The position numbers and the translations under genes are program-made. This document shows positions 2,851 through 57,802 of a stretch of DNA of 57,802 bases, one piece after another. The stretch spans positions 126,776-184,577 of the forward strand of contig MU005989.1 of NCBI GenBank assembly GCA_010093745.1, written 5' to 3'. The DNA comes from Piedraia hortae CBS 480.64 (taxonomy: Eukaryota). The number at the start of each line of letters is the position of its first letter. Within the stretch, counting starts at the first letter, position 1. The notes below the pieces were generated by a model. The model was given only the letters and a program-made list of their open reading frames with translations. It searched no databases and had not been told where the DNA came from.

Positions 2851-4215
2851 TGTTAACTTTTTCCCGCGCGCTCGTTGCGTTCTATGCAAGGGGTGCATGC
2901 ATGCGTCGCCGATCAACTCTTTATTCACTTGCAGGTTCTTTGGCTATTCTCGTCCCAGCATCGGCAGTGCCGATACTCTGGGCTGGCCAATCAGCATACG
3001 AATTGACTGGTATTCGGAAATAGAAAGCTTCGGTTGCAGAACACACACAGAATGACAGAATACAAATTTCAGTTGCAATCATCAATCCACGCCAGGACCG
3101 TCCGTTCCGCTCAACGACTTCTCCAACCAAAGCAGTCCAGGCGGGATACCCGATATACGTTTCCCCCCCCCTCCCCAAACGAATCTCTCCCTACATACGC
3201 CTCACGAACAGAAGATAAATGCAGCGAGCAATAGCGCGACTCTCTTCGCGACACCGCCTTGCCGCCATAAGTCTCTACCGCGCCCTCCTCTCTCAAAGTA
3301 AAGTCCTCCCACCAGACCTCACCGCACCAGCGAAGCGGATCGTACAGAACAAATTCCGCGATGCGCGTTTCTGGAACGGCTCACAAAGACTGCACCTACA
3401 TTTCGCTGCGGGCTATGAGGCGCTCGATCTTCTCGACAACTACCCTCGTGGGGAAGAAAGAGTGAGGAAGTTGATTGACAATGCGGTGGACTTTATCAAG
3501 GAGCCTAGACGGAGGCCAACACGGCAGATCAAGCGAGGGAGGAAGCCCCTGGCGAGGGAACATCTTCAAGCAAACGATACGCCTAGACAACCCTCGCTTG
3601 GCGATGAGCCGACAGATACGGCGAGACCGCGCGCCAAATGCGACGGCCGTTCTGGTTCTTCAAACGTGTCCATATTCGCCCGTCCACTGCCCTTAAGCCA
3701 CCTTTCCGGCCGCCGACGCGTACCGGTTCTCTACTCCGCACAACGCATCCCCGTGCTCCGGTTGAGTCCCCATCAGCCTGCCGCCATATCAAAGATGATA
3801 CGGGACCGTCTTGCGAAACGACAACGCTCGATCGATACGCGGGATAAATTGGCCGAAGAGGAGTATGTAGCAAGACTGGAAGATCAGTGGGATAAGCTCT
3901 TGATGCGGGTTGGGGCTACGAGGGAGGGCGGTCCCAAGGTGAGTTGGGCTGATGCCATTGTTGATGCGAGAAAGGAGAACATGGAGAAACATAGGCTAGA
4001 TGCCGAGGACAGGAGGGAGGTTGCTGGGCGGATGGAAGATGTTGTTAGGAGGGAGCGGGAGTTGTATGAATGGGAGGAGAAGAGAAAGAGGCTAAGAATT
4101 GAGAGCAGGAAAGGATTCAGTATGGATAAGGAAGGATGGGGGATTTTTGGTTGAGGTACTAGGGACTTTGTTGGGTGCTATATACGGATTGCTAGGTTGG
4201 GAAAGATGGGATCTA
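2851..4215 (+). repeat. Left arm of ~1.37 kb inverted duplication (partner 23977-25342)
   Basis: Reverse complement of 23977-25342 aligns from TGTTAACTTTTT to GGGATCTA. The ORF track shows identical translations in several frames. Confidence 0.98.
3219..4154 (+). CDS. LYR-motif (Complex1_LYR-like) protein, copy 1, probably mitochondrial
   Basis: 311 aa; N-terminal RHRLAAISLYRALL...KFR...AGYEAL LYR signature, basic N-terminus, C-terminal coiled coil. Confidence 0.8.
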   Translation: MQRAIARLSSRHRLAAISLYRALLSQSKVLPPDLTAPAKRIVQNKFRDARFWNGSQRLHLHFAAGYEALDLLDNYPRGEERVRKLIDNAVDFIKEPRRRPTRQIKRGRKPLAREHLQANDTPRQPSLGDEPTDTARPRAKCDGRSGSSNVSIFARPLPLSHLSGRRRVPVLYSAQRIPVLRLSPHQPAAISKMIRDRLAKRQRSIDTRDKLAEEEYVARLEDQWDKLLMRVGATREGGPKVSWADAIVDARKENMEKHRLDAEDRREVAGRMEDVVRRERELYEWEEKRKRLRIESRKGFSMDKEGWGIFG

Positions 4216-5458: not shown

Positions 5459-7108
5459 CTAACAGAGGACTTTTCTCCCGCCCTTCGGTTCCTTAAAGAC
5501 ACTATGTTCCACAGTTATGCCCTGAGATCTTGCCCAATCGACCGCATCCCGCCTCACATGGGTACACTCTCGCAGAATTATGTGCCTGACGTGACCTGAC
5601 CGGACCAAAGCTCTTACAGACACACCTGTGATGGCCGAGCGACTAAAGTCGACTATACGGAGATTTGTAAGTCTGCTCAATATCACTCCTACACTGTCAT
5701 CGTCGGCTCGTGGGATGCTTTCATAAGAAAGATGGCATAGGCTTCGTAGTCGATGGTGCGAGAATACGCGATCCTCGTCGACCCGGAATGTACGGAGAAC
5801 CAGAGAGGATAGTGGTGTTGAAGAAATTTGGTTATTTGGCAAATCCAGAAAAAGCGGCAGAGAAGCATTGGCTGGTACGGGCGAGTCTAGATCCAGTTCC
5901 TCGAGGTGCGGCAAATGCAATTCGTTACTATCCGTGAAATTCGGGAAAGCATTGGTCATGGTCAACTTTTTGATGGTAGTAGGCAACTTAAGACGCTTTC
6001 CACAGCCTGTAAGGTTCTTCAGTTCAAGGGTCTTCAGATTGGCTAGTCCTGATAGATCGACATCGCGTGCCAGAAGCCTGGATTGGAATGTACAATTTTG
6101 ATGGATCACAGACAAGTGCTCTAAGGCAGGAAGGCTTCCCACGGTCTCAAGGAAAAGGGCTTCGTTAGGGCAATCGAGCAGCGTTAGACTAAGGGCTCGA
6201 AGATTTGGAAACCAAGCTGCGAAACCGGGACCAGCACTTCGAAAACCCAATCCAAGCGTACATTCCAAAACCTCCAGCTTTGACAATAGGCTGACCATTT
6301 TTCCAAGGTCAGAGCAGCCGACTTCAATTGATGAGGCGATTCGAAAAGATCGGAGAGCGGTTGCCTGGTTGAGCGATTGAGCTACTGTGGCCGTCAGCCG
6401 ATCACTGAACATGCCGAGCAAGGTGATCGACCGCAGCGAGGGCAGTCTAGTCAGTGCTTGAAGTGCTTTCTCGGGGTCGTACAAGTTGCCCAGCGTTGCC
6501 TCGATCATGGTACCGCGCGCTGAGTTGATGGCACGACTGATGAAGCTGCTACGAACCTTTCGCTTTGCTTCGGAAAGATCCAAGTGCCTCCAGAGCATTG
6601 GAGTGCCATGTATGAAGTTCGCCCACTGCTTGGAAACGAAGCGTACCTTTACTACTTGTTTGAAGCTTAGACGTGCGAAGATGGACGCAACCAGCTCGAC
6701 AGGGAGAACAGATAGAGGATCGATTTTTTTGGCGTGTACGAGCACCGACTCCAACCCGTCATGAGCGTTACGTAGACGTTCATATCCCTGGCCGACGAGT
6801 TTGATGCTGCGCAGGCCATGAGTATAGACTTCGAGCGCCACCTTTGGCTTTCCCATTTTATGAAGGACATGGCCAGCACGAATGTAGCCAGTTGCATCAT
6901 CACGACGGAGCTGAATTGCTGCTTTGGCATCCTTTAGCGAGGCCGCAAGATTGTTCAGTTTCTCATGGCAGGCGGCGCGCTGGTCTAATAGCCGCACGGT
7001 TGCACCTCGATCAATTGCTCGGTCGAAATGATGCAATGCCTTTCGGAAATCTTTGCTCTTGTAGTATGCACGGCCATTGCGTTCATGGTGATCCTGAATG
7101 CTGCTCAT
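5459..7108 (-). CDS. DIA2: TPR + F-box + LRR protein (Dia2/Pof3 family SCF substrate adaptor)
   Basis: N-terminal TPRs (KALHHFDRAI...DATGYIRAG), F-box (DPLSVLPVELVASIFARLSFKQVVKVRFVSKQW), C-terminal LRRs. Confidence 0.85.
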   Translation of the reverse strand: MSSIQDHHERNGRAYYKSKDFRKALHHFDRAIDRGATVRLLDQRAACHEKLNNLAASLKDAKAAIQLRRDDATGYIRAGHVLHKMGKPKVALEVYTHGLRSIKLVGQGYERLRNAHDGLESVLVHAKKIDPLSVLPVELVASIFARLSFKQVVKVRFVSKQWANFIHGTPMLWRHLDLSEAKRKVRSSFISRAINSARGTMIEATLGNLYDPEKALQALTRLPSLRSITLLGMFSDRLTATVAQSLNQATALRSFRIASSIEVGCSDLGKMVSLLSKLEVLECTLGLGFRSAGPGFAAWFPNLRALSLTLLDCPNEALFLETVGSLPALEHLSVIHQNCTFQSRLLARDVDLSGLANLKTLELKNLTGCGKRLKLPTTIKKLTMTNAFPNFTDSNELHLPHLEELDLDSPVPANASLPLFLDLPNNQISSTPLSSLVLRTFRVDEDRVFSHHRLRSLCHLSYESIPRADDDSVGVILSRLTNLRIVDFSRSAITGVSVRALVRSGHVRHIILRECTHVRRDAVDWARSQGITVEHSVFKEPKGGRKVLC

Positions 7109-7162
7109 GGTGGAAGAAGTGCGAGGTTGCGACCTACTTCAAATGCGAGATTGCGCATTAAT

Positions 7163-7250
7163 GCGACGCGTCGACGCCGTTAGAGAGGCTAGCGCGACGC
7201 GGGGTAAAGTGGGCCTCTACCTTGATGGTAGCTCTAACCCTAAAGGGTTA
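7163..7250. promoter_or_regulatory. Divergent DIA2/TAF6 promoter with MCB-like (ACGCGT/ACGCG) sites and a TAACCCT-AA-AGGGTTA palindrome
   Basis: GCGACGCGTCG near 7163, GCGCGACGCG near 7192, telobox-like inverted pair at 7235-7250, all in a ~190 bp intergenic gap. Confidence 0.45.
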
Positions 7251-7295
7251 CCGTTCTCCGCACCAGCGGAACCCAGAACAACCGCAATCAACACC

Positions 7296-8627
7296 ATGTC
7301 AGTCTGGAACCCCGAAAACGTGATCGATGCCGCGGAAACCATTGGAATTTCGTCGCTAGACTCTAACGTGCAAGACCATCTCGCGCGCGATGTGGAATTT
7401 CGCATCAGCCAGGTGCTCATTGCCGCCATCAAGTTCATGCGCCATGCCAAGCGAACGACATTGACCACTCAGGATGTATCTCAGGCATTGAGGCTGTTGG
7501 GCGTCGAGCCGCTGTATGGGTACGAGTCGACGCGGCCGCTGAAGTTTGGCGAGGCGTCGATTGGCCCGGGCCAACCGCTGTTCTACATTGAGGACGAAGA
7601 GATGGACTTTGAGAAACTCATCAACGCACCGCTGCCCAAGGTTCCGAGGGAAATTGGCTTTACGGGACATTGGCTGGCGCTGGAAGGAGTGCAGCCCAGC
7701 ATTCCGCAAAACCCAACACGGGATCCGGGACAGGAGACTGTGTCCAAAGGTCACGGCACAAAGGCGACGCTGGCAGCTCTCAGCGGACAGGACAACGTTG
7801 CCGTCAAGCCACTGGTCAAGCATGTGCTGTCTAAAGAACTACAGCTCTACTTTGAGCGCGTGTGCACGGCTCTGTTGGACGAGAGTAACGACGAATTCCG
7901 CCTCGCCGCGCTGTCGTCGTTGCAGACCGACCCGGGAATCCACCAACTGGTGCCGTATTTTGTGCAGTTTATCGCTGACAAAGTCACGCACAACCTCAAG
8001 AACATCCAGACGCTGATAAAGTGCATGCAGATGGTGTATGCACTGCTGAAAAACGAGCACATGATGCTCTCGCCCTACGCGCCTGCCATCGTGCCGTCCG
8101 TTCTGACCTGTGCGATTGGCAAGCGGCTGGGCGGGCCCAACGACCACATTATGCAGGAGCTGGAGCTGCGAAAGTACGCGGCCGACCTACTGGGCTGCAT
8201 TGCGCAAAAGTACGGTACCGGCTCCTCTACATTGAAGCCGCGCATCGCCCGTTCGTGTATGAAGAACCTGCTGGACCGCACAAAGCCGTTGGGCACACAC
8301 TACGGCGCCATTCTCGGCCTGCAGGCGATGGCGGGCGCCACGGGTGTGCGGATGATCATCTTGCCGAGTCTTCCCACATATGATCTTCATCTCGGTGAAG
8401 CTCTACAAGACGAAGCAAGGAGCGAACAGGCAGGGTACGTAGTAGACGCGCTGCTGGAAGCGCTACAGAAGCTGGAGAAGGAGGCAATGGGCCTCGGCGT
8501 CAACGGATACACCGAGGAACAAGTGGCTGAACGTTTAAATGCACGCGTGGGCAGAGTGCTGGCCAGCCGCATTCAGGCGCTGGAGCGGCCACGACTGGTA
8601 GAGGCGGTGCTGGAGGAGCCCATGTAA
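7296..8627 (+). CDS. TAF6: TFIID/SAGA subunit TAF6
   Basis: MSVWNPENV start, histone fold (LARDVEFRI...KFMRHAKRTTLTTQDV), VEPLYGY, HWLALEGVQPSIPQNP, KHVLSKELQLYF, DPGIHQLVPYF. Confidence 0.96.
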   Translation: MSVWNPENVIDAAETIGISSLDSNVQDHLARDVEFRISQVLIAAIKFMRHAKRTTLTTQDVSQALRLLGVEPLYGYESTRPLKFGEASIGPGQPLFYIEDEEMDFEKLINAPLPKVPREIGFTGHWLALEGVQPSIPQNPTRDPGQETVSKGHGTKATLAALSGQDNVAVKPLVKHVLSKELQLYFERVCTALLDESNDEFRLAALSSLQTDPGIHQLVPYFVQFIADKVTHNLKNIQTLIKCMQMVYALLKNEHMMLSPYAPAIVPSVLTCAIGKRLGGPNDHIMQELELRKYAADLLGCIAQKYGTGSSTLKPRIARSCMKNLLDRTKPLGTHYGAILGLQAMAGATGVRMIILPSLPTYDLHLGEALQDEARSEQAGYVVDALLEALQKLEKEAMGLGVNGYTEEQVAERLNARVGRVLASRIQALERPRLVEAVLEEPM

Positions 8628-23976: not shown

Positions 23977-25342
23977 TAGATCCCATCTTTCCCAACCTAG
24001 CAATCCGTATATAGCACCCAACAAAGTCCCTAGTACCTCAGCCAAAAATCCCCCATCCTTCCTTATCCATACTGAATCCTTTCCTGCTCTCAAGTCTTAG
24101 CCTCTTTCTCTTCTCCTCCCATTCATACAACTCCGTCTCCCTCCTAACAACATCTTCCATCCGCCCAGCAACCTCCCTCCTGTCCTCGGCATCTAGCCTA
24201 TGTTTCTCCATGTTCTCCTTTCTCGCATCAACAATGGCATCAGCCCAACTCACCTTGGGACCGCCCTCCCTCGTAGCCCCAACCCGCATCAAGAGCTTAT
24301 CCCACTGATCTTCCAGTCTTGCTACATACTCCTCTTCGGCCAATTTATCCCGCGTATCGATCGAGCGTTGTCGTTTCGCAAGACGGTCCCGTATCATCTT
24401 TGATATGGCGGCAGGCTGATGGGGACTCAACCGGAGCACGGGGATGCGTTGTGCGGAGTAGAGAACCGGTACGCGTCGGCGGCCGGAAAGGTGGCTTAAG
24501 GGCAGTGGACGGGCGAATATGGACACGTTTGAAGAACCAGAACGGCCGTCGCATTTGGCGCGCGGTCTCGCCGTATCTGTCGGCTCATCGCCAAGCGAGG
24601 GTTGTCTAGGCGTATCGTTTGCTTGAAGATGTTCCCTCGCCAGGGGCTTCCTCCCTCGCTTGATCTGCCGTGTTGGCCTCCGTCTAGGCTCCTTGATAAA
24701 GTCCACCGCATTGTCAATCAACTTCCTCACTCTTTCTTCCCCACGAGGGTAGTTGTCGAGAAGATCGAGCGCCTCATAGCCCGCAGCGAAATGTAGGTGC
24801 AGTCTTTGTGAGCCGTTCCAGAAACGCGCATCGCGGAATTTGTTCTGTACGATCCGCTTCGCTGGTGCGGTGAGGTCTGGTGGGAGGACTTTACTTTGAG
24901 AGAGGAGGGCGCGGTAGAGACTTATGGCGGCAAGGCGGTGTCGCGAAGAGAGTCGCGCTATTGCTCGCTGCATTTATCTTCTGTTCGTGAGGCGTATGTA
25001 GGGAGAGATTCGTTTGGGGAGGGGGGGGGGGGAAACGTATATCGGGTATCCCGCCTGGACTGCTTTGGTTGGAGAAGTCGTTGAGCGGAACGGACGGTCC
25101 TGGCGTGGATTGATGATTGCAACTGAAATTTGTATTCTGTCATTCTGTGTGTGTTCTGCAACCGAAGCTTTCTATTTCCGAATACCAGTCAGCTCGTATG
25201 CTGATTGGCCAGCCCAGAGTATCGGCACTACCAATGCTGGAACGAGAATAGCCAAAGAACCTGTAAGTAGATAAAGAGTTGATCGGCGACGCATGCATGC
25301 ACACCACGCATAGACGCAACGCGCGCGGGGAAAAAGTTAACA
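23977..25342 (-). repeat. Right arm of ~1.37 kb inverted duplication (partner 2851-4215)
   Basis: Reverse-complement match to 2851-4215. Confidence 0.98.
24038..24973 (-). CDS. LYR-motif protein, copy 2 (309/311 aa identical to copy 1)
   Basis: Differs only at RERE->RETE and RIES->RLES near the C-terminus. Confidence 0.8.
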   Translation of the reverse strand: MQRAIARLSSRHRLAAISLYRALLSQSKVLPPDLTAPAKRIVQNKFRDARFWNGSQRLHLHFAAGYEALDLLDNYPRGEERVRKLIDNAVDFIKEPRRRPTRQIKRGRKPLAREHLQANDTPRQPSLGDEPTDTARPRAKCDGRSGSSNVSIFARPLPLSHLSGRRRVPVLYSAQRIPVLRLSPHQPAAISKMIRDRLAKRQRSIDTRDKLAEEEYVARLEDQWDKLLMRVGATREGGPKVSWADAIVDARKENMEKHRLDAEDRREVAGRMEDVVRRETELYEWEEKRKRLRLESRKGFSMDKEGWGIFG

Positions 25343-33677: not shown

Positions 33678-34169
33678 ATCCCATTGCCTGATGGCCGTGG
33701 AATTTGGCGCGGGGCCTGGGTGGAGACGCTAGTCTGTACAAATTACAGCTCCCACTCTCTCCCGGAAAACTGAAGTTGCCTCTTTGAGAAGGTCGATTCC
33801 ACGGCGGTAAAAAACCCTGAGAGGAAGACGGAAGAACTACCGCCGCGCCCGGAAAGGCCACCGCCCCCACGGAGAAAGCCCACCCAACCATGAATACCAC
33901 AAATCAAACATCCCAAAACGGAATGAAACAAAGCAAACCATAAAGAACACCAAAAAACACAAAATCGCAACCATCAGTACAAGAGAAAAAATCTCACAGC
34001 AAGAAAGAACCGCCACCCTCGCCACAAAAAAAGGGAACAACACCATGGAATCGACCCTCTCAAAGAGGCAACTTCAGTTTTCCGGGAGAGAGTGGGAGCT
34101 GTAATTTGTACAGACTAGCGTCTCCACCCAGGCCCCGCGCCAAATTCCACGGCCATCAGGCAATGGGAT
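33678..34169. repeat. Inverted repeat: 127-bp arms (33678-33804 and 34043-34169, 2 mismatches) around a 238-bp A/C-rich spacer; hairpin RNA or MITE-like
   Basis: ATCCCATTGCCTGATGGCC...GTCGATTCCACGG versus CCATGGAATCGAC...GGCCATCAGGCAATGGGAT. Confidence 0.95.
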
Positions 34170-51648: not shown

Positions 51649-52464
51649 TCACAGATATCGAGTGCGTTTCTTCCTCTCGCGAAGTGGGTTTCTCCATGCT
51701 GGTTGATGCAGTGCGACTGGTTCTGGTGCTGCCGTTTGCGGTGCAGGTTGAGCATCCGCCGCTGTCGCTGTTTCTGGAGCGGTGACTTGCTCAGCTGCAG
51801 GTTCCTGTTGCTGGCTTTCCGCCTGTTTCGTGTCCCGCTTTTGCGTTTTTGTTGCTTGTTTCGTGGACTTTGCACGCTTTTCCGTGGGTTGGTTTACTTC
51901 TAAATCGGGCAGTTTTGTCGTCTTTTTTGTTGGTTTGGGGACTGCTTGGATTGGTGCGTTTTGGGGAGGGTTTGTAGCTTCCTGATCTGTTTCTTTTGCT
52001 TTCCGCTTTGCTGGATTTTTTGCTGGATTGGGAGTTGCCTGCTCTGTGGCGTTTTTGGGTTGGTTTGGGGCTGGTTTGAATTGTGTGGTCGCTAGGGCCT
52101 CTTGATCTTTTGCCTTAGGTTGTCGCTTTGCTGTCTTTTTAACTGGTTTGGGGGTCGCTTGGATTGCCGCATTCTCGGGTTACTCTACGGCTAGATTGGG
52201 TTGATTTGAGGCCGGCTTTGCAGTCTCTTCATCTGCTACCTTTACTCTTCGTTTTGCTGTCTTTTCGGTTTGTTTTGGGGCTGCCGGCTCTGTGGCGTTA
52301 ACCTGTTGTTCTGCGGTCTGTTCGAATTGTTTTGTGGTTGGCCCTGCAGGCTCTTCGCTTGTTGCATTTGCTTTCTGTTTTGCTGCCTTTTTTGCCGGCT
52401 TGGGGGCTGCTTGCCCTGTGGCGTTTGCCGTTTGTTTCGGGGCTTGTCGTTTTGTGACGTTTTT
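51649..52464 (-). pseudogene. Disconnected original K/A/P-rich repetitive C-terminal tail of SET paralog A
   Basis: The alternative frame from the A5 run (52460-52464) reads repeats QAAPKPAKKAAKQKA / QATPKPVKKTAKRQ / QATPNPAKNPAKRKA to TGA at 51649, with one internal TAA at 52180-52182. Confidence 0.7.
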
Positions 52465-53708
52465 GCCGGTTCGGAGGTCCCGTGAGGTATTTCCATTCCA
52501 AATGCCGCTTCTGATTCTACTTGCTTTGGAATCTCCTGGATTGGGATACCTGGCTGCTTTGCAACCTCTGCTTTCTCTTCTGGCGGCTTGGTCCCCATAT
52601 TTGCAGCTTCCATTCGCTTTCTACGCTCCTCCAACCGCTTTGCCCTGTTCGACTGCTGTTCGGCCGTTCTTTTCTCTGCTTTCTCTTTCACTAGGTTTGC
52701 TAGAACCTCTGGATCATTGAGGGAAACCCAGCCCGCTATCTTCTTCGCAGGACGCTGATCGACAACATCTGCATCAGCCTTTCGCTTGGCGTCCTTGGTC
52801 TTTTCCTTAATATTGGCCGGTTTCTCTGACTCGGCCCTGTTCGTCTTTTTCACGAGCCATCCACGGCAACTTGGTGTGCCACAATGACACTGCTGCGAAG
52901 GCCCATTGTAGGCGTCCAAGTTATAATCAATAGTCAACTCCTCTCCGGCAGAAACACCATTTTTACCCACGGAAACCCCAATACGAGGCTTCTCATGCAC
53001 AACAATCTTCAATATCTCACAATTCGGCTCGCACGAGTGGTTAAGGAAGCGAGCCTCACCTCCCCTTTCGGTCGCGTCAATCACCAAACCCCCAACAAGA
53101 TCCATTGAATAGGCGCAGTGTTTATCCTTATATCGCTTCACATTCTCCTCCTCCGTAATGAGTTCACCGGTATATTCCAAAACAATCTCCTTAGGTTCAA
53201 ACGCCCTTTGTGCCCGCACACCATATCCTCGATCGACCGTCTGGATTAGTTCAATCCCCAAGTCTTTCTCCTTCCTTCGTCTAGCAAGCTCGGCAAACGG
53301 TCGGTTTCCGCATTTAGCTGGCGTGAAGCTGCAGAGCTTCTCCGTGCACTCGTACTGCATGCACCTCGTCTCACAGGACTCGCCACAGTCGAGCTCGTCA
53401 TCATCTTTGCACCTGCATGGATCGCTGAGGGGGTTCTCAACACGCCAGAAATCTTTGGCGTCGCCGCTGGGGAGGAGTCGATGGAGTTTTCTCCAGTCTT
53501 TGGGTCCTTTGGCTGCTGGCAAGGGTTCGGGAGTTGTTTGGGCTGGTTCGAGGACGGTTACATCCTGGCATTCGAGTATCGATAGTTCGTCCAAAATGCC
53601 CTTCTTGCAAGTGTCTAGCTCGCTGTTGAGTTTGGCTAGTCGTTTTTCCTTTCTAATAGTCCTATCGGACTCGGCAGGCTTGGTGATCTTGTTCATTTTG
53701 AGTGGCAT
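52242..53708 (-). CDS. Divergent ASH1-like AWS-SET-postSET histone methyltransferase, paralog A (first ATG 53708; frameshifted tail)
   Basis: AWS Cys cluster, CGNRPFAEL, DRGYGVRA, EYTGE, ARFLNHSCEPNC, GEELTIDYN, CHCGTPSCRG. Confidence 0.85.
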   Translation of the reverse strand: MPLKMNKITKPAESDRTIRKEKRLAKLNSELDTCKKGILDELSILECQDVTVLEPAQTTPEPLPAAKGPKDWRKLHRLLPSGDAKDFWRVENPLSDPCRCKDDDELDCGESCETRCMQYECTEKLCSFTPAKCGNRPFAELARRRKEKDLGIELIQTVDRGYGVRAQRAFEPKEIVLEYTGELITEEENVKRYKDKHCAYSMDLVGGLVIDATERGGEARFLNHSCEPNCEILKIVVHEKPRIGVSVGKNGVSAGEELTIDYNLDAYNGPSQQCHCGTPSCRGWLVKKTNRAESEKPANIKEKTKDAKRKADADVVDQRPAKKIAGWVSLNDPEVLANLVKEKAEKRTAEQQSNRAKRLEERRKRMEAANMGTKPPEEKAEVAKQPGIPIQEIPKQVESEAAFGMEIPHGTSEPAKTSQNDKPRNKRQTPQGKQPPSRQKRQQNRKQMQQAKSLQGQPQNNSNRPQNNRLTPQSRQPQNKPKRQQNEE

Positions 53709-54561
53709 TTTTTCTATCTTCTGGACCTTCTTAATAGCCTTGACTAGTCTCCACAGAGCCTTTTCAATCGACAATGTGCCCACACCATTGTATGATACCC
53801 GTAGACTCTTCTGCGATACAAAGGGCTTTGGGCTTGACTCAAAGAGAATTTCTCCGCTTCGGGATAATATGGCTTTGAGCAATCAAGAGTGTCAAGGAGA
53901 CAAAGAAAATGGGCATCACTTGGGAGCATTCGGTGTATTGCTGTAGTGCCCTGATACAGTGCCATCGTGTGTGAGAGCTGTTTTGTGTGGTAAGAATCAT
54001 CTTCTAGAACAAAAGTTGACGGTGGGGAATTGTGTTGGCCCAGCAGTGATATCGTTTTGCAAATGCGGTAACCAGATGCTACCAACAAGTATATTGTGGC
54101 GATTCAGTCACCATGTTCATTGCTGGATTTACTCGGTTTGATCGCTGAGCCTCGGTGACATAGTTATTCCGTGCAGGTTTATAGAAGAAGCAGCACTGAC
54201 GCGGCTGGACCTCATAGTATAATTGTTTACGCTTTTCCGACGCCAACGCAGATAGAAAATATATAGAGCATGATCTTGTTAGACATTCGGGACTGAGGAT
54301 TTTTTTCGTAACAGGATAGTGGCAGTATAACTTTGATCTTGACGCAGAGTCCAAGTTTTTTGTAGCGCAGAGCCTGTTCAGTGGAGTGAGATCATCACAA
54401 GGCAAGGATGTCGTAACTTAAGGAATTGGTACCTCGACTTGATCACATGCATCTACGAAGACTTGCACTGAGCCAAGCGCTTTCGCTAGTCACGAGTGTT
54501 TCCCATCCCCGTGGAGCAAATGATGTACAGAGTTTGGGTGCGTGCCGATAAGACACCCATA

Positions 54562-54576
54562 ATATATATATATATA
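54562..54576. repeat. (AT)n microsatellite
   Basis: Directly visible. Confidence 0.8.
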
Positions 54577-55156
54577 GCAAGATCCATTGTATCAGCACGC
54601 CCTAAGAATGGAGTTATACAACGCAATTCACTATACTGGGCCGTAGTCGTAAATGCTACCATCAGTTGAGCATTGATGAAAACTTTGATCGACCAGTACT
54701 TCTTGCATACAGTAAGCCCAATGGAACTTGGTTAAACATCCCCAACCCCATCAATACAGACTTTAAAAATGGAACACATTCGCGAGGTGCGCCAAGCCCG
54801 GGGTTAACATCCAACCCTTGCCTCGGCGCCCAAATTCAACAAGTCTTAAGTTCACATTTCACGGAAACATTAACCCACGTCTTTCTTCTCCGCACAATTC
54901 AGCATGCTTCGACGTAGTTGTCGCACAGACTTATGTTCGAGGCCATCAGGCCCTGGTGTGCATTGTGATCGTCAACTCCGTAGCAGCATGCTCAAAAACC
55001 TCATCGTGGCCGCTGAGACGTCGCGTTGTCCAAAGGAGACAGTAGCCGCTAATAACGACGCTCTACATCCGCTTGAGATGGCTGAACTCCCGGGCATGAC
55101 CTTGCGCTCTAGAAAGGCGCAGAAGCCCGCGGTCAGCGAGGTACAGCAGCAAGTAC

Positions 55157-55220
55157 TGTTGTGAATATGCGGTATATTACGCGCATTATTAGTAACCGTC
55201 GCTCGGCTCTCGACTTCACG
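55157..55220 (+). repeat. LTR-like direct repeat, left copy (runs into the N gap)
   Basis: Starts TGTTG; first 40 bp identical to 57763-57802; the assembly gap begins inside it. Confidence 0.7.
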
Positions 55221-55660
55221 NNNNNNNNNNNNNNNNNNNNNNNNNNNNNNNNNNNNNNNNNNNNNNNNNNNNNNNNNNNNNNNNNNNNNNNNNNNNNNNN
55301 NNNNNNNNNNNNNNNNNNNNNNNNNNNNNNNNNNNNNNNNNNNNNNNNNNNNNNNNNNNNNNNNNNNNNNNNNNNNNNNNNNNNNNNNNNNNNNNNNNNN
55401 NNNNNNNNNNNNNNNNNNNNNNNNNNNNNNNNNNNNNNNNNNNNNNNNNNNNNNNNNNNNNNNNNNNNNNNNNNNNNNNNNNNNNNNNNNNNNNNNNNNN
55501 NNNNNNNNNNNNNNNNNNNNNNNNNNNNNNNNNNNNNNNNNNNNNNNNNNNNNNNNNNNNNNNNNNNNNNNNNNNNNNNNNNNNNNNNNNNNNNNNNNNN
55601 NNNNNNNNNNNNNNNNNNNNNNNNNNNNNNNNNNNNNNNNNNNNNNNNNNNNNNNNNNNN
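55221..55660. other. Assembly gap (440 N)
   Basis: Run of N. Confidence 1.
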
Positions 55661-55661
55661 C

Positions 55662-56051
55662 CGCTTCACTACCACCGCCGAAGGGTATTGCACTACATTT
55701 GCCAGAAACTTACAAACCTACCGCAGCGCGTCCAAAAGCTATACTATGGCGAACAGCACCCACGGGAAGAGTGAGACAAACCCATACTATATCACGGACG
55801 AGCTTGCATCGTGGTTCTTTTACCTCGGGACTGCACACATCCCTTGGTTGGAAACGTGGCGAGCGACCGGGGCGATGGCAGATAATCGACGGTTTGATGA
55901 TCTCGAACACATGATGTCCACATTGCGGACAGCTGCGGGGACCAGGGCGCTGATCACGCCGTCACAGCAGCCATCGGTAAACATGCCGCGGGTCGTCGCA
56001 GCAGCCGCAACAGGCTTCAGATGGTGTAATCATGGAGAGCAAGCCATCTGA
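55662..56051 (+). pseudogene. Truncated Ty1/copia gag-like fragment
   Basis: Open frame F..TAEGYCTTF..NLQ...ITDELASWFFYLGT..PWLETWR...DLEHMMSTLR resembles a helical gag region. It ends at WCNH, like the start of a Zn knuckle, and follows an LTR-like repeat. Confidence 0.5.
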
Positions 56052-57618
56052 AACTACGAAAATGACCAAAAATTGGCTCCAAGAGGGGCTTTACGTCGGT
56101 AAAGACAACGGTGCCCGCAAAAGGCAGCACAACAGAAAATACCCATCTTCAAGACGTCGGACTAACAATAACCGTTTCAAACTGAATCTTCCAATGTTCA
56201 AATACATGGAAAAGCAACGAGACTTCACCATACCGTACGAAATCTTCTCCATCTCAGCCACGAAAGCAAAACCTAAGGGCTGGCATCGCGTGAGCCGGAA
56301 CCGACTAATCGGTGATGCCAAGTCAGAATGGGCCAACGAAGAGCAGTACGTTTCCTCAGCCTGCAATTGCAAAGCCCCGGAGGGTTCAGAACAGCAGCCC
56401 GGGTGCGGCGATCTCTGCATCAACCGTGTAATGCAGTACGAGTGCTCGCCAAAAAATTGCAAGCTCTCTCCGGAGGCATGCGGCAATCGGCCCTTTGCCG
56501 AACTCGCGGCCCGGCTTAAGAAAGGCGGAGCCTATGACATCGGGGTTGAGATTATCCAAACGGCTGACCGCGGGTTTGGCGTGCGGGCATGTCGCTCTTT
56601 TGCCCCGGGACAGATTATAATGGAGTATACCGGGGAGGTTATAACCGAGGACGAGTGCCAGAGACGCATCAGAGAGGATTACAAGGACGTCAAGTGCTAC
56701 TATCTTATGGAGCTTGCGCATGGGCTGATTATCGATGGGATGAAGGGCAACATGGCCCGGTTTATTAACCACTCATGTGAACCTAACTGCGAGATCCGCA
56801 TGGTGACGGTTAACGGCATGCTGCGGTTGGGTGTGTTTGCAGGCGATGACGGGGTTTCGACTGGAGACGAACTGACCTATGACTACAACTTTGAGACTTG
56901 CGCAGATTCTCGGCTCGAGTGCTACTGCGGCACGCCTAGCTGCCGCGGATTTCTTACTAAAAGGCGTAACTTGACCGAGTTGAGGCTGCTGAAGAAGGAG
57001 GCTGCGTTGAAGCGTAAGGCGGAAGAGGATGCAGTTGTCAAAACACCGACGAGCATCAAGGAGAAGGTTACCGTCGCCGCAGCGAGGACTATCAAAACCC
57101 CAATCAGCAACCGACGCATCATTAAAGAAAACATCGCAAAGGGACAGATGCTAACGCCAGATAGCCTCGACCGCAACGCGAAGGACCCCTTCCCCAGGAA
57201 CCTCGAACGGAAAGCCGACTCCGAGAACGGCCCTCCTACCAAGTTAGTTAAAGCCTCCATCCAATGGTTCAGCTGGGTCCCCGAAGCACAGCTTCAGAGC
57301 GAAAAGGCTGCAAAAGATGAAGCCGCGAAGCAAACCGCACGAGCTCTGCGTCTTGCCGCTCGGGAGAAGAACCAGGCTGTGACCGTTCAGGTGAGCCAAA
57401 CTACCAAAACGAACCAGAAGGTGGAAATCGAGAGGAAAATGGTGGAGTTTCGGATGGGTGAGAACACGAAGAAGATAGAGCGCGTGCAAAAGGCAGGGAA
57501 AACCCGCACCAAGGCACGCGAGAAAGTCACTACGTCGACTCCGGAAGTTTTAGTGATGCAACGACCCACTCGCGTGCGAAAGATGCCGCCGCGTATGATG
57601 ATGTTGTTGGGCGAGTGA
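56032..57618 (+). CDS. ash1: ASH1-like AWS-SET-postSET H3K36 methyltransferase, paralog B (intronless, short N-terminus)
   Basis: Fungal ASH1 motifs KNWLQEGLYVG and RDFTIPYEIF, AWS Cys cluster, CGNRPFAEL..GG.YDIGVE, DRGFGVR, ARFINHSCEPNC, GDELTYDYNF, CYCGTPSCRG. Confidence 0.9.
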   Translation: MESKPSETTKMTKNWLQEGLYVGKDNGARKRQHNRKYPSSRRRTNNNRFKLNLPMFKYMEKQRDFTIPYEIFSISATKAKPKGWHRVSRNRLIGDAKSEWANEEQYVSSACNCKAPEGSEQQPGCGDLCINRVMQYECSPKNCKLSPEACGNRPFAELAARLKKGGAYDIGVEIIQTADRGFGVRACRSFAPGQIIMEYTGEVITEDECQRRIREDYKDVKCYYLMELAHGLIIDGMKGNMARFINHSCEPNCEIRMVTVNGMLRLGVFAGDDGVSTGDELTYDYNFETCADSRLECYCGTPSCRGFLTKRRNLTELRLLKKEAALKRKAEEDAVVKTPTSIKEKVTVAAARTIKTPISNRRIIKENIAKGQMLTPDSLDRNAKDPFPRNLERKADSENGPPTKLVKASIQWFSWVPEAQLQSEKAAKDEAAKQTARALRLAAREKNQAVTVQVSQTTKTNQKVEIERKMVEFRMGENTKKIERVQKAGKTRTKAREKVTTSTPEVLVMQRPTRVRKMPPRMMMLLGE

Positions 57619-57762
57619 TGTTTCGGGTAGTTGAAAAGAGCGTGAGCCACGTTGATGGTCACGATCCAGTAAGATGCAGTTGAGATGTACGTTAACGGGT
57701 TGGTCGAGTGTATGTAGTTAGAAAGATCGTTTCCCTTGGAAATGTTCGCTACGATACCTATT

Positions 57763-57802
57763 TGTTGTGAATATGCGGTATATTACGCGCATTATTAGTA
57801 AC
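57763..57802 (+). repeat. LTR-like direct repeat, right copy (truncated by window end)
   Basis: TGTTGTGAATATGCGGTATATTACGCGCATTATTAGTAAC, 40/40 identical to 55157-55196. Confidence 0.7.

Follow-up and report, generated by a model that had tools for sequence, protein, structure and literature searches.

Fungal ASH1 proteins (KMT2H), for example Neurospora crassa ASH1 and Zymoseptoria tritici Ash1, are chromatin writers with an AWS-SET-postSET core that methylate H3K36 independently of RNA polymerase II, and ASH1 elsewhere marks poorly transcribed, facultatively silent chromatin. Ty1/copia (Pseudoviridae-type) retroelements are bounded by long terminal repeats (LTRs) with a TG terminus, some LTR elements carry additional open reading frames, and some have transduced host genes, among them maize Bs1 and the acutely transforming retroviruses, in which a 5' LTR and partial gag sit on a 5'-truncated host gene with an LTR downstream. 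These systems meet at one end of a 57,802-nucleotide (nt) stretch of the genome of the hair-colonising fungus Piedraia hortae CBS 480.64, the whole of which stretch is called the window below, where the beginning of a copia-type LTR and a partial gag directly precede an ASH1-type gene, SET-B, that is followed by a second LTR start.

The locus resembles each of these systems in part. SET-B has the same AWS-SET-postSET core as fungal ASH1, but in comparison with Dothideomycete orthologues it is missing about 250 N-terminal profile positions and carries a 48-residue insert after the post-SET region, and it is not beside the DHHC palmitoyltransferase gene that adjoins ASH1 at most related loci with enough flank (6/8). 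The element shares with Ty1/copia its gag homology, TG terminus and high copy number, and other copies have a gag knuckle at the expected place, whereas the local copy ends at an internal breakpoint. Like the gene-transducing elements, the locus joins a 5' LTR and partial gag to a 5'-truncated gene upstream of another LTR; unlike them, it has no polypurine tract, no sign of a second copy, an old host segment and a right junction at the LTR end. As in transposon-gene chimeric loci and genes with LTR-derived leaders or promoters, contigs run from the element into SET-B. The result listings of literature searches on fungal LTR gene capture and LTR chimeric transcripts contained no ASH1-copia fusion.

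We consider that the locus is best read as a resident, old, single-copy ASH1 paralogue that was hit twice by a copia family, with a deletion that fused the 5' LTR and partial gag of the upstream copy to the truncated gene, and we place the probability of this reading at roughly two in three. It is carried by the unique depth of the joint between gag and SET-B amid a very abundant element family, by a right junction that falls exactly at the end of an LTR, and by the divergence of SET-B from its paralogues. The contigs of three public runs (X1, X2 and X3) were compared with positions 53500-57802 for this analysis, and the features of the locus are as follows.

52242..53882, minus strand: SET-A, a diverged ASH1-like gene, head-to-head with SET-B; annotated product P0171 (484 amino acids) from 53696 (homology)
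55152..55156, plus strand: AGTAC, the pentanucleotide immediately 5' of the left LTR; candidate target site for the upstream insertion
55157..55220, plus strand: putative copia LTR, first 64 nt (left copy), with TGTTG start (repeat search, differing flanks in X1 contigs)
55221..55660, no strand: assembly gap of 440 N; expected content is the rest of the LTR, the primer-binding site and about 125-137 N-terminal gag codons (X3 contig, homologue alignment)
55661..56015, plus strand: Ty1/copia gag fragment, 118 codons (frame of 55662), high-copy, with a non-LTR breakpoint at its end (homology, contig depth, loose ends)
56016..56031, plus strand: unique 16-nt leader from the element breakpoint to the first in-frame ATG; the gag frame reads on to TGA at 56049-56051 (bridging contigs)
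56032..57618, plus strand: SET-B, predicted 528-amino-acid AWS-SET-postSET paralogue of ASH1 type (domains, homology, tree)
57619..57762, plus strand: 3' flank, 144 nt, no polypurine tract; ends in CTATT, candidate target site for the downstream insertion (sequence)
57763..57802, plus strand: second LTR copy, first 40 nt, same orientation, cut by the window end (repeat search; the X1 contig stops at 57789)

The LTR-like repeats

Two same-strand copies of a 40-nt sequence starting TGTTG lie at 55157-55196 and 57763-57802 and are identical throughout, as the original prediction had it; these 2 matches compare with 0 expected in 100 shuffles. The left copy can be read for 64 nt before the run of 440 N at 55221-55660, and the right copy for 40 nt before the window ends at 57802, so the assembly gap does lie inside one repeat and the window end inside the other. 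The same-orientation starts are 2606 nt apart, and between them are an open frame from 55662 (stop at 56049-56051), the 528-codon open reading frame (ORF) of SET-B and the 3' flank. The element terminus was placed by 15 X1 contigs that have unrelated flanks before 55157 (9 contigs) or 55155 (6 contigs). Together, the TG start, the differing flanks and the gag homology described below support the view that the repeat behaves as the 5' end of a Ty1/copia-family LTR.

At the right side, the junction is exactly the first base of the LTR, and inspection of the bases 5' of 57763 revealed no polypurine tract (6/15 purines in the last 15 nt), in agreement with a caveat of the original prediction. No degenerate LTR or other remnant of the element was found elsewhere in the 57.8-kb window, and composition indices of the repeat-induced point mutation type gave no signal in either SET gene, in the spacer or in the piece of the element.

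The gag fragment and its breakpoint

Although a Pfam scan of the 129-residue upstream frame returned no family at E<=1, a phmmer search of 1.84 billion representatives gave 49 matches at E<=1e-3, 12 of them at E<=1e-10 (best 1.4e-16). Nine of the matches were scanned, and eight contain retroelement domains of copia type (RVT_2, rve, gag_pre-integrs, Pol_BBD, SH3_retrovirus or Retrotran_gag_2), with none in the ninth. The original prediction of a gag-like frame is thus borne out, and the possibility it had allowed, that 55662-56051 would have no gag homology, does not apply to 55662-56015. In polyproteins of 1506 and 1573 amino acids the counterpart of the fragment spans residues about 128-231, and its alignment to full-length homologues begins at residue about 126-137, so the upstream frame is the rear part of a Ty1/copia capsid region. 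Full-length copia polyproteins match the window only at 55662-56012, and the local copy has no knuckle, protease, integrase, reverse transcriptase or RNase H.

Sequence derived from the element stops at 56015 (codon G118), five codons before the residues W-C-N-H that had been proposed as the point where gag breaks off within its knuckle. Other copies continue differently past this position, as seen in the loose ends of 38 X2 contigs and also in X3, and their continuation reads N-P-D-P-E-D-R-C-I-K in the gag frame. P0127, the nearest copy at the protein level, has 81% identity as far as the codon that ends at 56015 and then runs on as 'TPDPEYRCIKCWHKNKNREC' into the real knuckle, which in other copies lies 7 residues past the break. 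This continuation indicates that W-C-N-H is read-through into non-element DNA, namely the leader of the gene itself, rather than a broken knuckle, and this part of the prediction has to be given up. What did hold is that the ATG of SET-B overlaps the His codon of the upstream frame. An intron joining the gag-like frame to the SET frame was also considered and rejected, the sole GT..AG candidate (55977-56020), read by eye, giving the wrong frame and a stop.

The content of the gap can be estimated from another copy, since an X3 contig has 524 nt between the two sides that flank the 440 N here. Subtraction of the expected gag codons from 524 nt leaves about 180-210 nt for the LTR, primer-binding site and leader, so the LTR would be short. 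The X3 run is labelled organism B and holds no SET-B sequence; its 4951-nt contig contains the same copia stretch with 0 differences over 64+355 nt. A closely related source organism, a contaminant common to the runs or horizontal transfer of the element could each explain this.

Contig depth across the joint

The joint at 56015/56016 is real: one contig of X1 (55986-57789) and one of X2 (55987-57738), the latter from another study, both span it. In X1, the contig with the joint and SET-B has a depth of 13.3, compared with 12.5 for the 21,043-nt unique contig to the left and 2083.5 and 1751.8 for contigs that contain the element only, where contig word depth is an imperfect proxy and not a copy number. 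Both 55157-55220 and 55661-56015 recur in very many contigs. By depth, then, the copia family is very abundant and SET-B has no sign of amplification, and the junction, whose occurrence in a single copy the original prediction had named as contrary to its own model, is single as far as contig depth shows. For the first 64 nt the contig depths sum to about 4270, some 2x the value of the internal part, a weak hint that fits two LTRs per element. At each of three junctions about 26-30 nt of element sequence can be assigned to this locus, and these stretches have zero mismatches to the abundant copies. No contig of organism A was found to bridge the gap at 55220-55661; that an intact copy has 524 nt here, near the 440 N estimated, is consistent with the scaffold having been joined correctly.

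That X2 is RNA is only a guess. Its contigs have depths of 1760 across SET-B, 107 to the left of the LTR and 233 towards SET-A, with part of 54503-54692 uncovered; such depths cannot rank genes and serve as a lead only. A 493-nt X2 contig (54693-55184) starts in the unique DNA on the left side and includes the first 28 nt of the LTR; if X2 is RNA, transcription crosses the left boundary of the element. The ORF at 54904-55164, in the same region, has no family match. In another X2 contig, of depth 459, 333 nt of the SET-B ORF are missing (56286-56620); the ends, CG..TA, are not those of a canonical intron, and the contig may be an artefact or a rare deletion form.

An extra X1 contig at 56851-56895 raises the summed bin depth to 90, compared with 13.3 elsewhere, and matches the ELTYDYNF stretch only. 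It has a coding stretch P-R-M-A-L-F-A-G-D-R before ELTYDYNF and GTGAGT after it, and this motif and intron place are those of non-Capnodiales ASH1 among the database matches; the contig probably derives from another fungus in the run.

SET-B and its catalytic core

The domain content of SET-B agrees with the original prediction of an intact AWS-SET-postSET gene of ASH1 type, an assignment that its relatives and a tree also favor. AWS (PF17907, E 9.5e-09, residues 121-156) directly precedes SET (PF00856, E 1.8e-21, residues 181-286), and these are followed by post-SET cysteines C297, C299 and C304. The catalytic residues N246, H247, C249, Y283, D284 and Y285, together with the three cysteines, are all in invariant columns (NHSC, ELTYDY, CxCx4C). 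Across 103 orthologues, SET-B retains 90 of the 108 columns that are at least 95% conserved, and the remainder comprises 6 gaps and 12 mostly conservative changes. The best relatives are of Capnodiales/Mycosphaerellales type, labelled ASH1 or ASH1L, with 54-58% identity over about 63% of the length, and the best solved relatives are NSD3, ASH1L, NSD1 and SETD2. No SRI domain was found in SET-B by Pfam, and SRI-bearing matches score far lower in the protein search with SET-A. The truncated protein is predicted to keep an active catalytic core.

What is missing is the front of the protein. Relatives of SET-B are 800-900 amino acids long and have a conserved N-terminal region that it does not have. 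An ASH1 profile of 833 positions, built from 103 of the 119 non-self matches (>=780 amino acids), matches SET-B from position 250, at nt 56026, 10 nt past the joint. In BLASTP, the match to P0002, a fuller ASH1 described below, begins at nt 56056 and at P0002 residue 185, so that the first 184 residues of P0002 have no counterpart. The 103-orthologue profile found no remnant of positions 1-249 on the plus strand of 51.5-57.8 kb. As a candidate for the lost N-terminal exon, the ORF at 54904-55164 was rejected; its tblastn matches are colinear but weak (E 7.8), and the profile does not match it.

Translation of SET-B can presumably start only at M1 (56032), where position -3 is A and position +4 is G. 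The mRNA leader, and perhaps the promoter, of SET-B may come from the element; if X2 is RNA, the leader would be element-derived for at least 29 nt. Transcripts started in the LTR would meet several gag-frame AUGs before the AUG of SET-B and would probably be translated inefficiently unless they start near the joint.

ASH1 paralogues and related loci

SET-B appears not to be the sole ASH1 of its genome. Whether a fuller gene exists elsewhere, and how it relates to SET-B in a tree, had been raised by the original prediction; such a gene appears to lie on another scaffold of Piedraia hortae CBS 480.64. This protein, P0002, has 676 amino acids, retains the N-terminal motifs and is the best match of SET-B, with 58% identity from P0002 residue 185 onward, a value low enough to suggest that the duplication is old. 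The second paralogue, SET-A, lies 2.1 kb upstream of SET-B on the opposite strand. Over the core it shares 48% identity with SET-B; its identities to orthologues are 40-45%, and nothing closer was found elsewhere in the protein collection. SET-A retains 74 of the 108 highly conserved columns, has a Q/N/K-rich tail and is also short at the N-terminus, with only a weak match to profile positions 185-224 (iE 0.089) and a weak match to the N-terminal motif 'KGVLDE'.

A tree was built from 36 rows, namely SET-A, SET-B and 34 of the 119 non-self matches (one per named genus plus eight unnamed), with no SET2 outgroup. In it SET-B is sister to P0002 (SH-aLRT 97) inside a Capnodiales-type ASH1 clade, with a long end branch (1.3 compared with 0.75), and SET-A, on a very long branch (3.71), is at the base of the group. 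A single clade of SET-A and SET-B was not rejected by the AU test (p-AU 0.38). From these data SET-B is most simply an old, diverged paralogue. Three ASH1-like genes in one genome are uncommon: at least 2 Ash1 copies are given for 35 of 1038 fungal genomes (PMC12581908).

A comparison of 24 metagenome loci that encode relatives revealed one ASH1 per locus. In L001, L005 and L007 the gene is a single uninterrupted ORF of 926-959 codons (937 in L001, with AWS and SET). Because these orthologues are single ORFs, intronlessness is ancestral and is thus no evidence on retroposition of SET-B. Upstream of ASH1, the DHHC palmitoyltransferase gene is present in L001, L003, L007, L016, L018 and L019 and absent from L005 and L014, these eight being the loci with at least 3.6 kb of upstream flank; L002 has a partial DHHC gene at its edge, and in the remaining 15 loci the flank is too short for a decision. 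No DHHC gene was found in the window (best E 1.2), and window genes other than the SET genes have no match in any of the 24 loci.

The DHHC gene of L001 is at 6157-8433, and it is a conserved upstream neighbor of ASH1 across divergent Dothideomycete-like contigs. Two AWS plus SET proteins, P0117 and P0198, are named 'palmitoyltransferase ZDHHC9/14/18' and are probably fused gene models.

Origin of the locus

The proposed series of events, whose order is itself conjectural, would begin with an old expansion of ASH1, probably a local one. Copia elements would later have integrated on both sides of SET-B, each in the same orientation, and a deletion or illegitimate recombination would then have run from within gag to a point in the SET-B coding region or just ahead of it. 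Such an event would have removed the rest of the upstream element and whatever preceded nt 56016 of the gene, so that the upstream copy retains a 5' LTR and some 245-255 codons from the start of gag. Gag would thereby have been joined, out of frame, to ASH1 coding sequence, with 16 nt left between the break and the first usable ATG. A right LTR that begins exactly at its first base is the signature of integration, and such a junction with no polypurine tract ahead of it is the outcome expected of a separate integration. The unit therefore looks like a scar of transposon activity and not like a gene-carrying retroelement.

The original prediction had instead proposed a retroelement whose pol region was replaced by a captured host chromatin writer, which could mark or unsilence its own insertions. 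On this view the two LTRs, partial gag and SET-B would be parts of a single chimeric copia derivative that was inserted whole at AGTAC, spreads with its gene and can be mobilised in trans by the many autonomous copies. Same-orientation LTR starts at their observed spacing, with nothing else of the element in the window, speak for this, as do a gag and a host gene cut at one joint in a way that resembles the first step of retroviral gene transduction, the status of SET-B as an extra ASH1 copy, and the many potential helper copies of the family. A capture model nevertheless requires that the chimeric unit has moved, that cis signals precede the 3' LTR, that the right junction lies within the element and that the host segment is about as young as the element itself. 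What is seen is a joint and gene at the depth of unique DNA and a right junction exactly at the first base of an LTR that no polypurine tract precedes. The SET-B protein is 42% diverged from its nearest paralogue, so no recent parent is visible in the same genome, and the next most similar gene after P0002 is SET-A, only 2 kb away, which suggests a long local history; the ancestral lack of introns adds nothing in favor of capture. Insertion as a single chimeric unit is for these reasons very unlikely, and we give slightly less credence still to the related proposal that the locus is a genuine non-autonomous copia derivative that transduced a catalytic-core-only ASH1, or the pre-mobile first step of such a capture. 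If that proposal were true, the second LTR would be the 3' LTR of an LTR-transcribed unit that autonomous copies could mobilise in trans, and a chromatin writer would travel with, or be driven by, a retroelement. The composite unit open to LTR-LTR recombination, which had been offered as an alternative to capture, survives in one respect: two direct LTRs could recombine and delete SET-B, but amplification is not seen by depth.

Two other explanations concern the left side of the locus. SET-B might have lost its N-terminal region long before the element arrived, in which case the copia fragment would be an incidental, later-deleted and functionally inert insertion and the gene would use its own signals. 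This would account for the failure to find an N-terminal remnant in 51.5-57.8 kb, for an N-terminus that is also short in SET-A, and for the age and fast evolution of both genes evident from their branches. It fits poorly with the mere 16 nt between the element breakpoint and the ATG, and with ASH1 homology that starts 10 nt past the joint and leaves no room for a promoter of its own; X2 contigs also span the joint with 29 nt on the element side, X2 being only guessed to be RNA. We regard such an early loss as unlikely, if less far-fetched than capture. The contigs that end at 55220 and start at 55661 might also not be neighbors at all but have been joined via a collapsed repeat, with the left LTR taken from another copy. 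The join does pass through a repeat with contig depth >1700, no contig of organism A crosses it, and both assembly contigs end inside the repeat; on the other side, the gap estimate is near the length in an intact copy, the element piece of only about 943 nt could be spanned by ordinary read pairs from unique DNA, and the joint of gag and SET-B is independent of the scaffold join. A scaffolding artefact is thus quite improbable, a little more so than early N-terminal loss.

Several considerations weigh against the reading of a resident gene hit twice. Because the readable sequence breaks off at the gap and ends at 57802, the second LTR may yet prove to be the 3' LTR of a single composite unit, and two same-orientation LTR starts with no other copia piece in 57.8 kb are also the expectation for a single unit. 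X1 is perhaps the assembly's own data, which may leave X2 as the only independent support for the joint, and contig depth is not copy number. The recency of the insertions rests only on about 26-30 bases at each of the three junctions and on the uniform high-depth contigs of the family. The truncation may predate the element, given that no N-terminal remnant is present in 51.5-57.8 kb. Finally, the presence of P0002 in the same genome is deduced from source names, not from the assembly itself.

Other features of the window

The neighbors of the SET-A/SET-B pair are housekeeping genes: TAF6, NOB1, AP mu, MCM5, Vps54, V-ATPase A and dynamin. Far from the locus, a perfect inverted repeat of 1053 nt (3163-4215 and 23977-25029) has arms 19.8 kb apart, each with a 311-codon ORF without a Pfam family, and is extended by 294 nt of 96% complementary sequence (2881-3174 and 25021-25314); it could be a mobile element, or a duplication that either arose recently in inverted orientation or was created by the assembly. 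A shorter inverted repeat of 127 nt (33678-33804 and 34043-34169) is 98% complementary, has 238 nt between its arms and lies just downstream of a gene for an AMP-binding enzyme.

What the locus means

It is important to point out that the locus is not evidence for a new kind of mobile element. It does illustrate how the assembly collapses a large repeat family, with gaps and scaffold ends that sit in LTRs. The Piedraia hortae assembly, of 16.95 Mb and 7,572 genes, is described as the smallest reported for a Dothideomycete (PMC7082219). In this very small fungal genome, the locus shows an abundant copia family reshaping a chromatin-writer gene, and the resulting paralogue, which would consist of the catalytic core only and would be expressed from an element-derived leader, provides a natural test of the role of the ASH1 N-terminal region.

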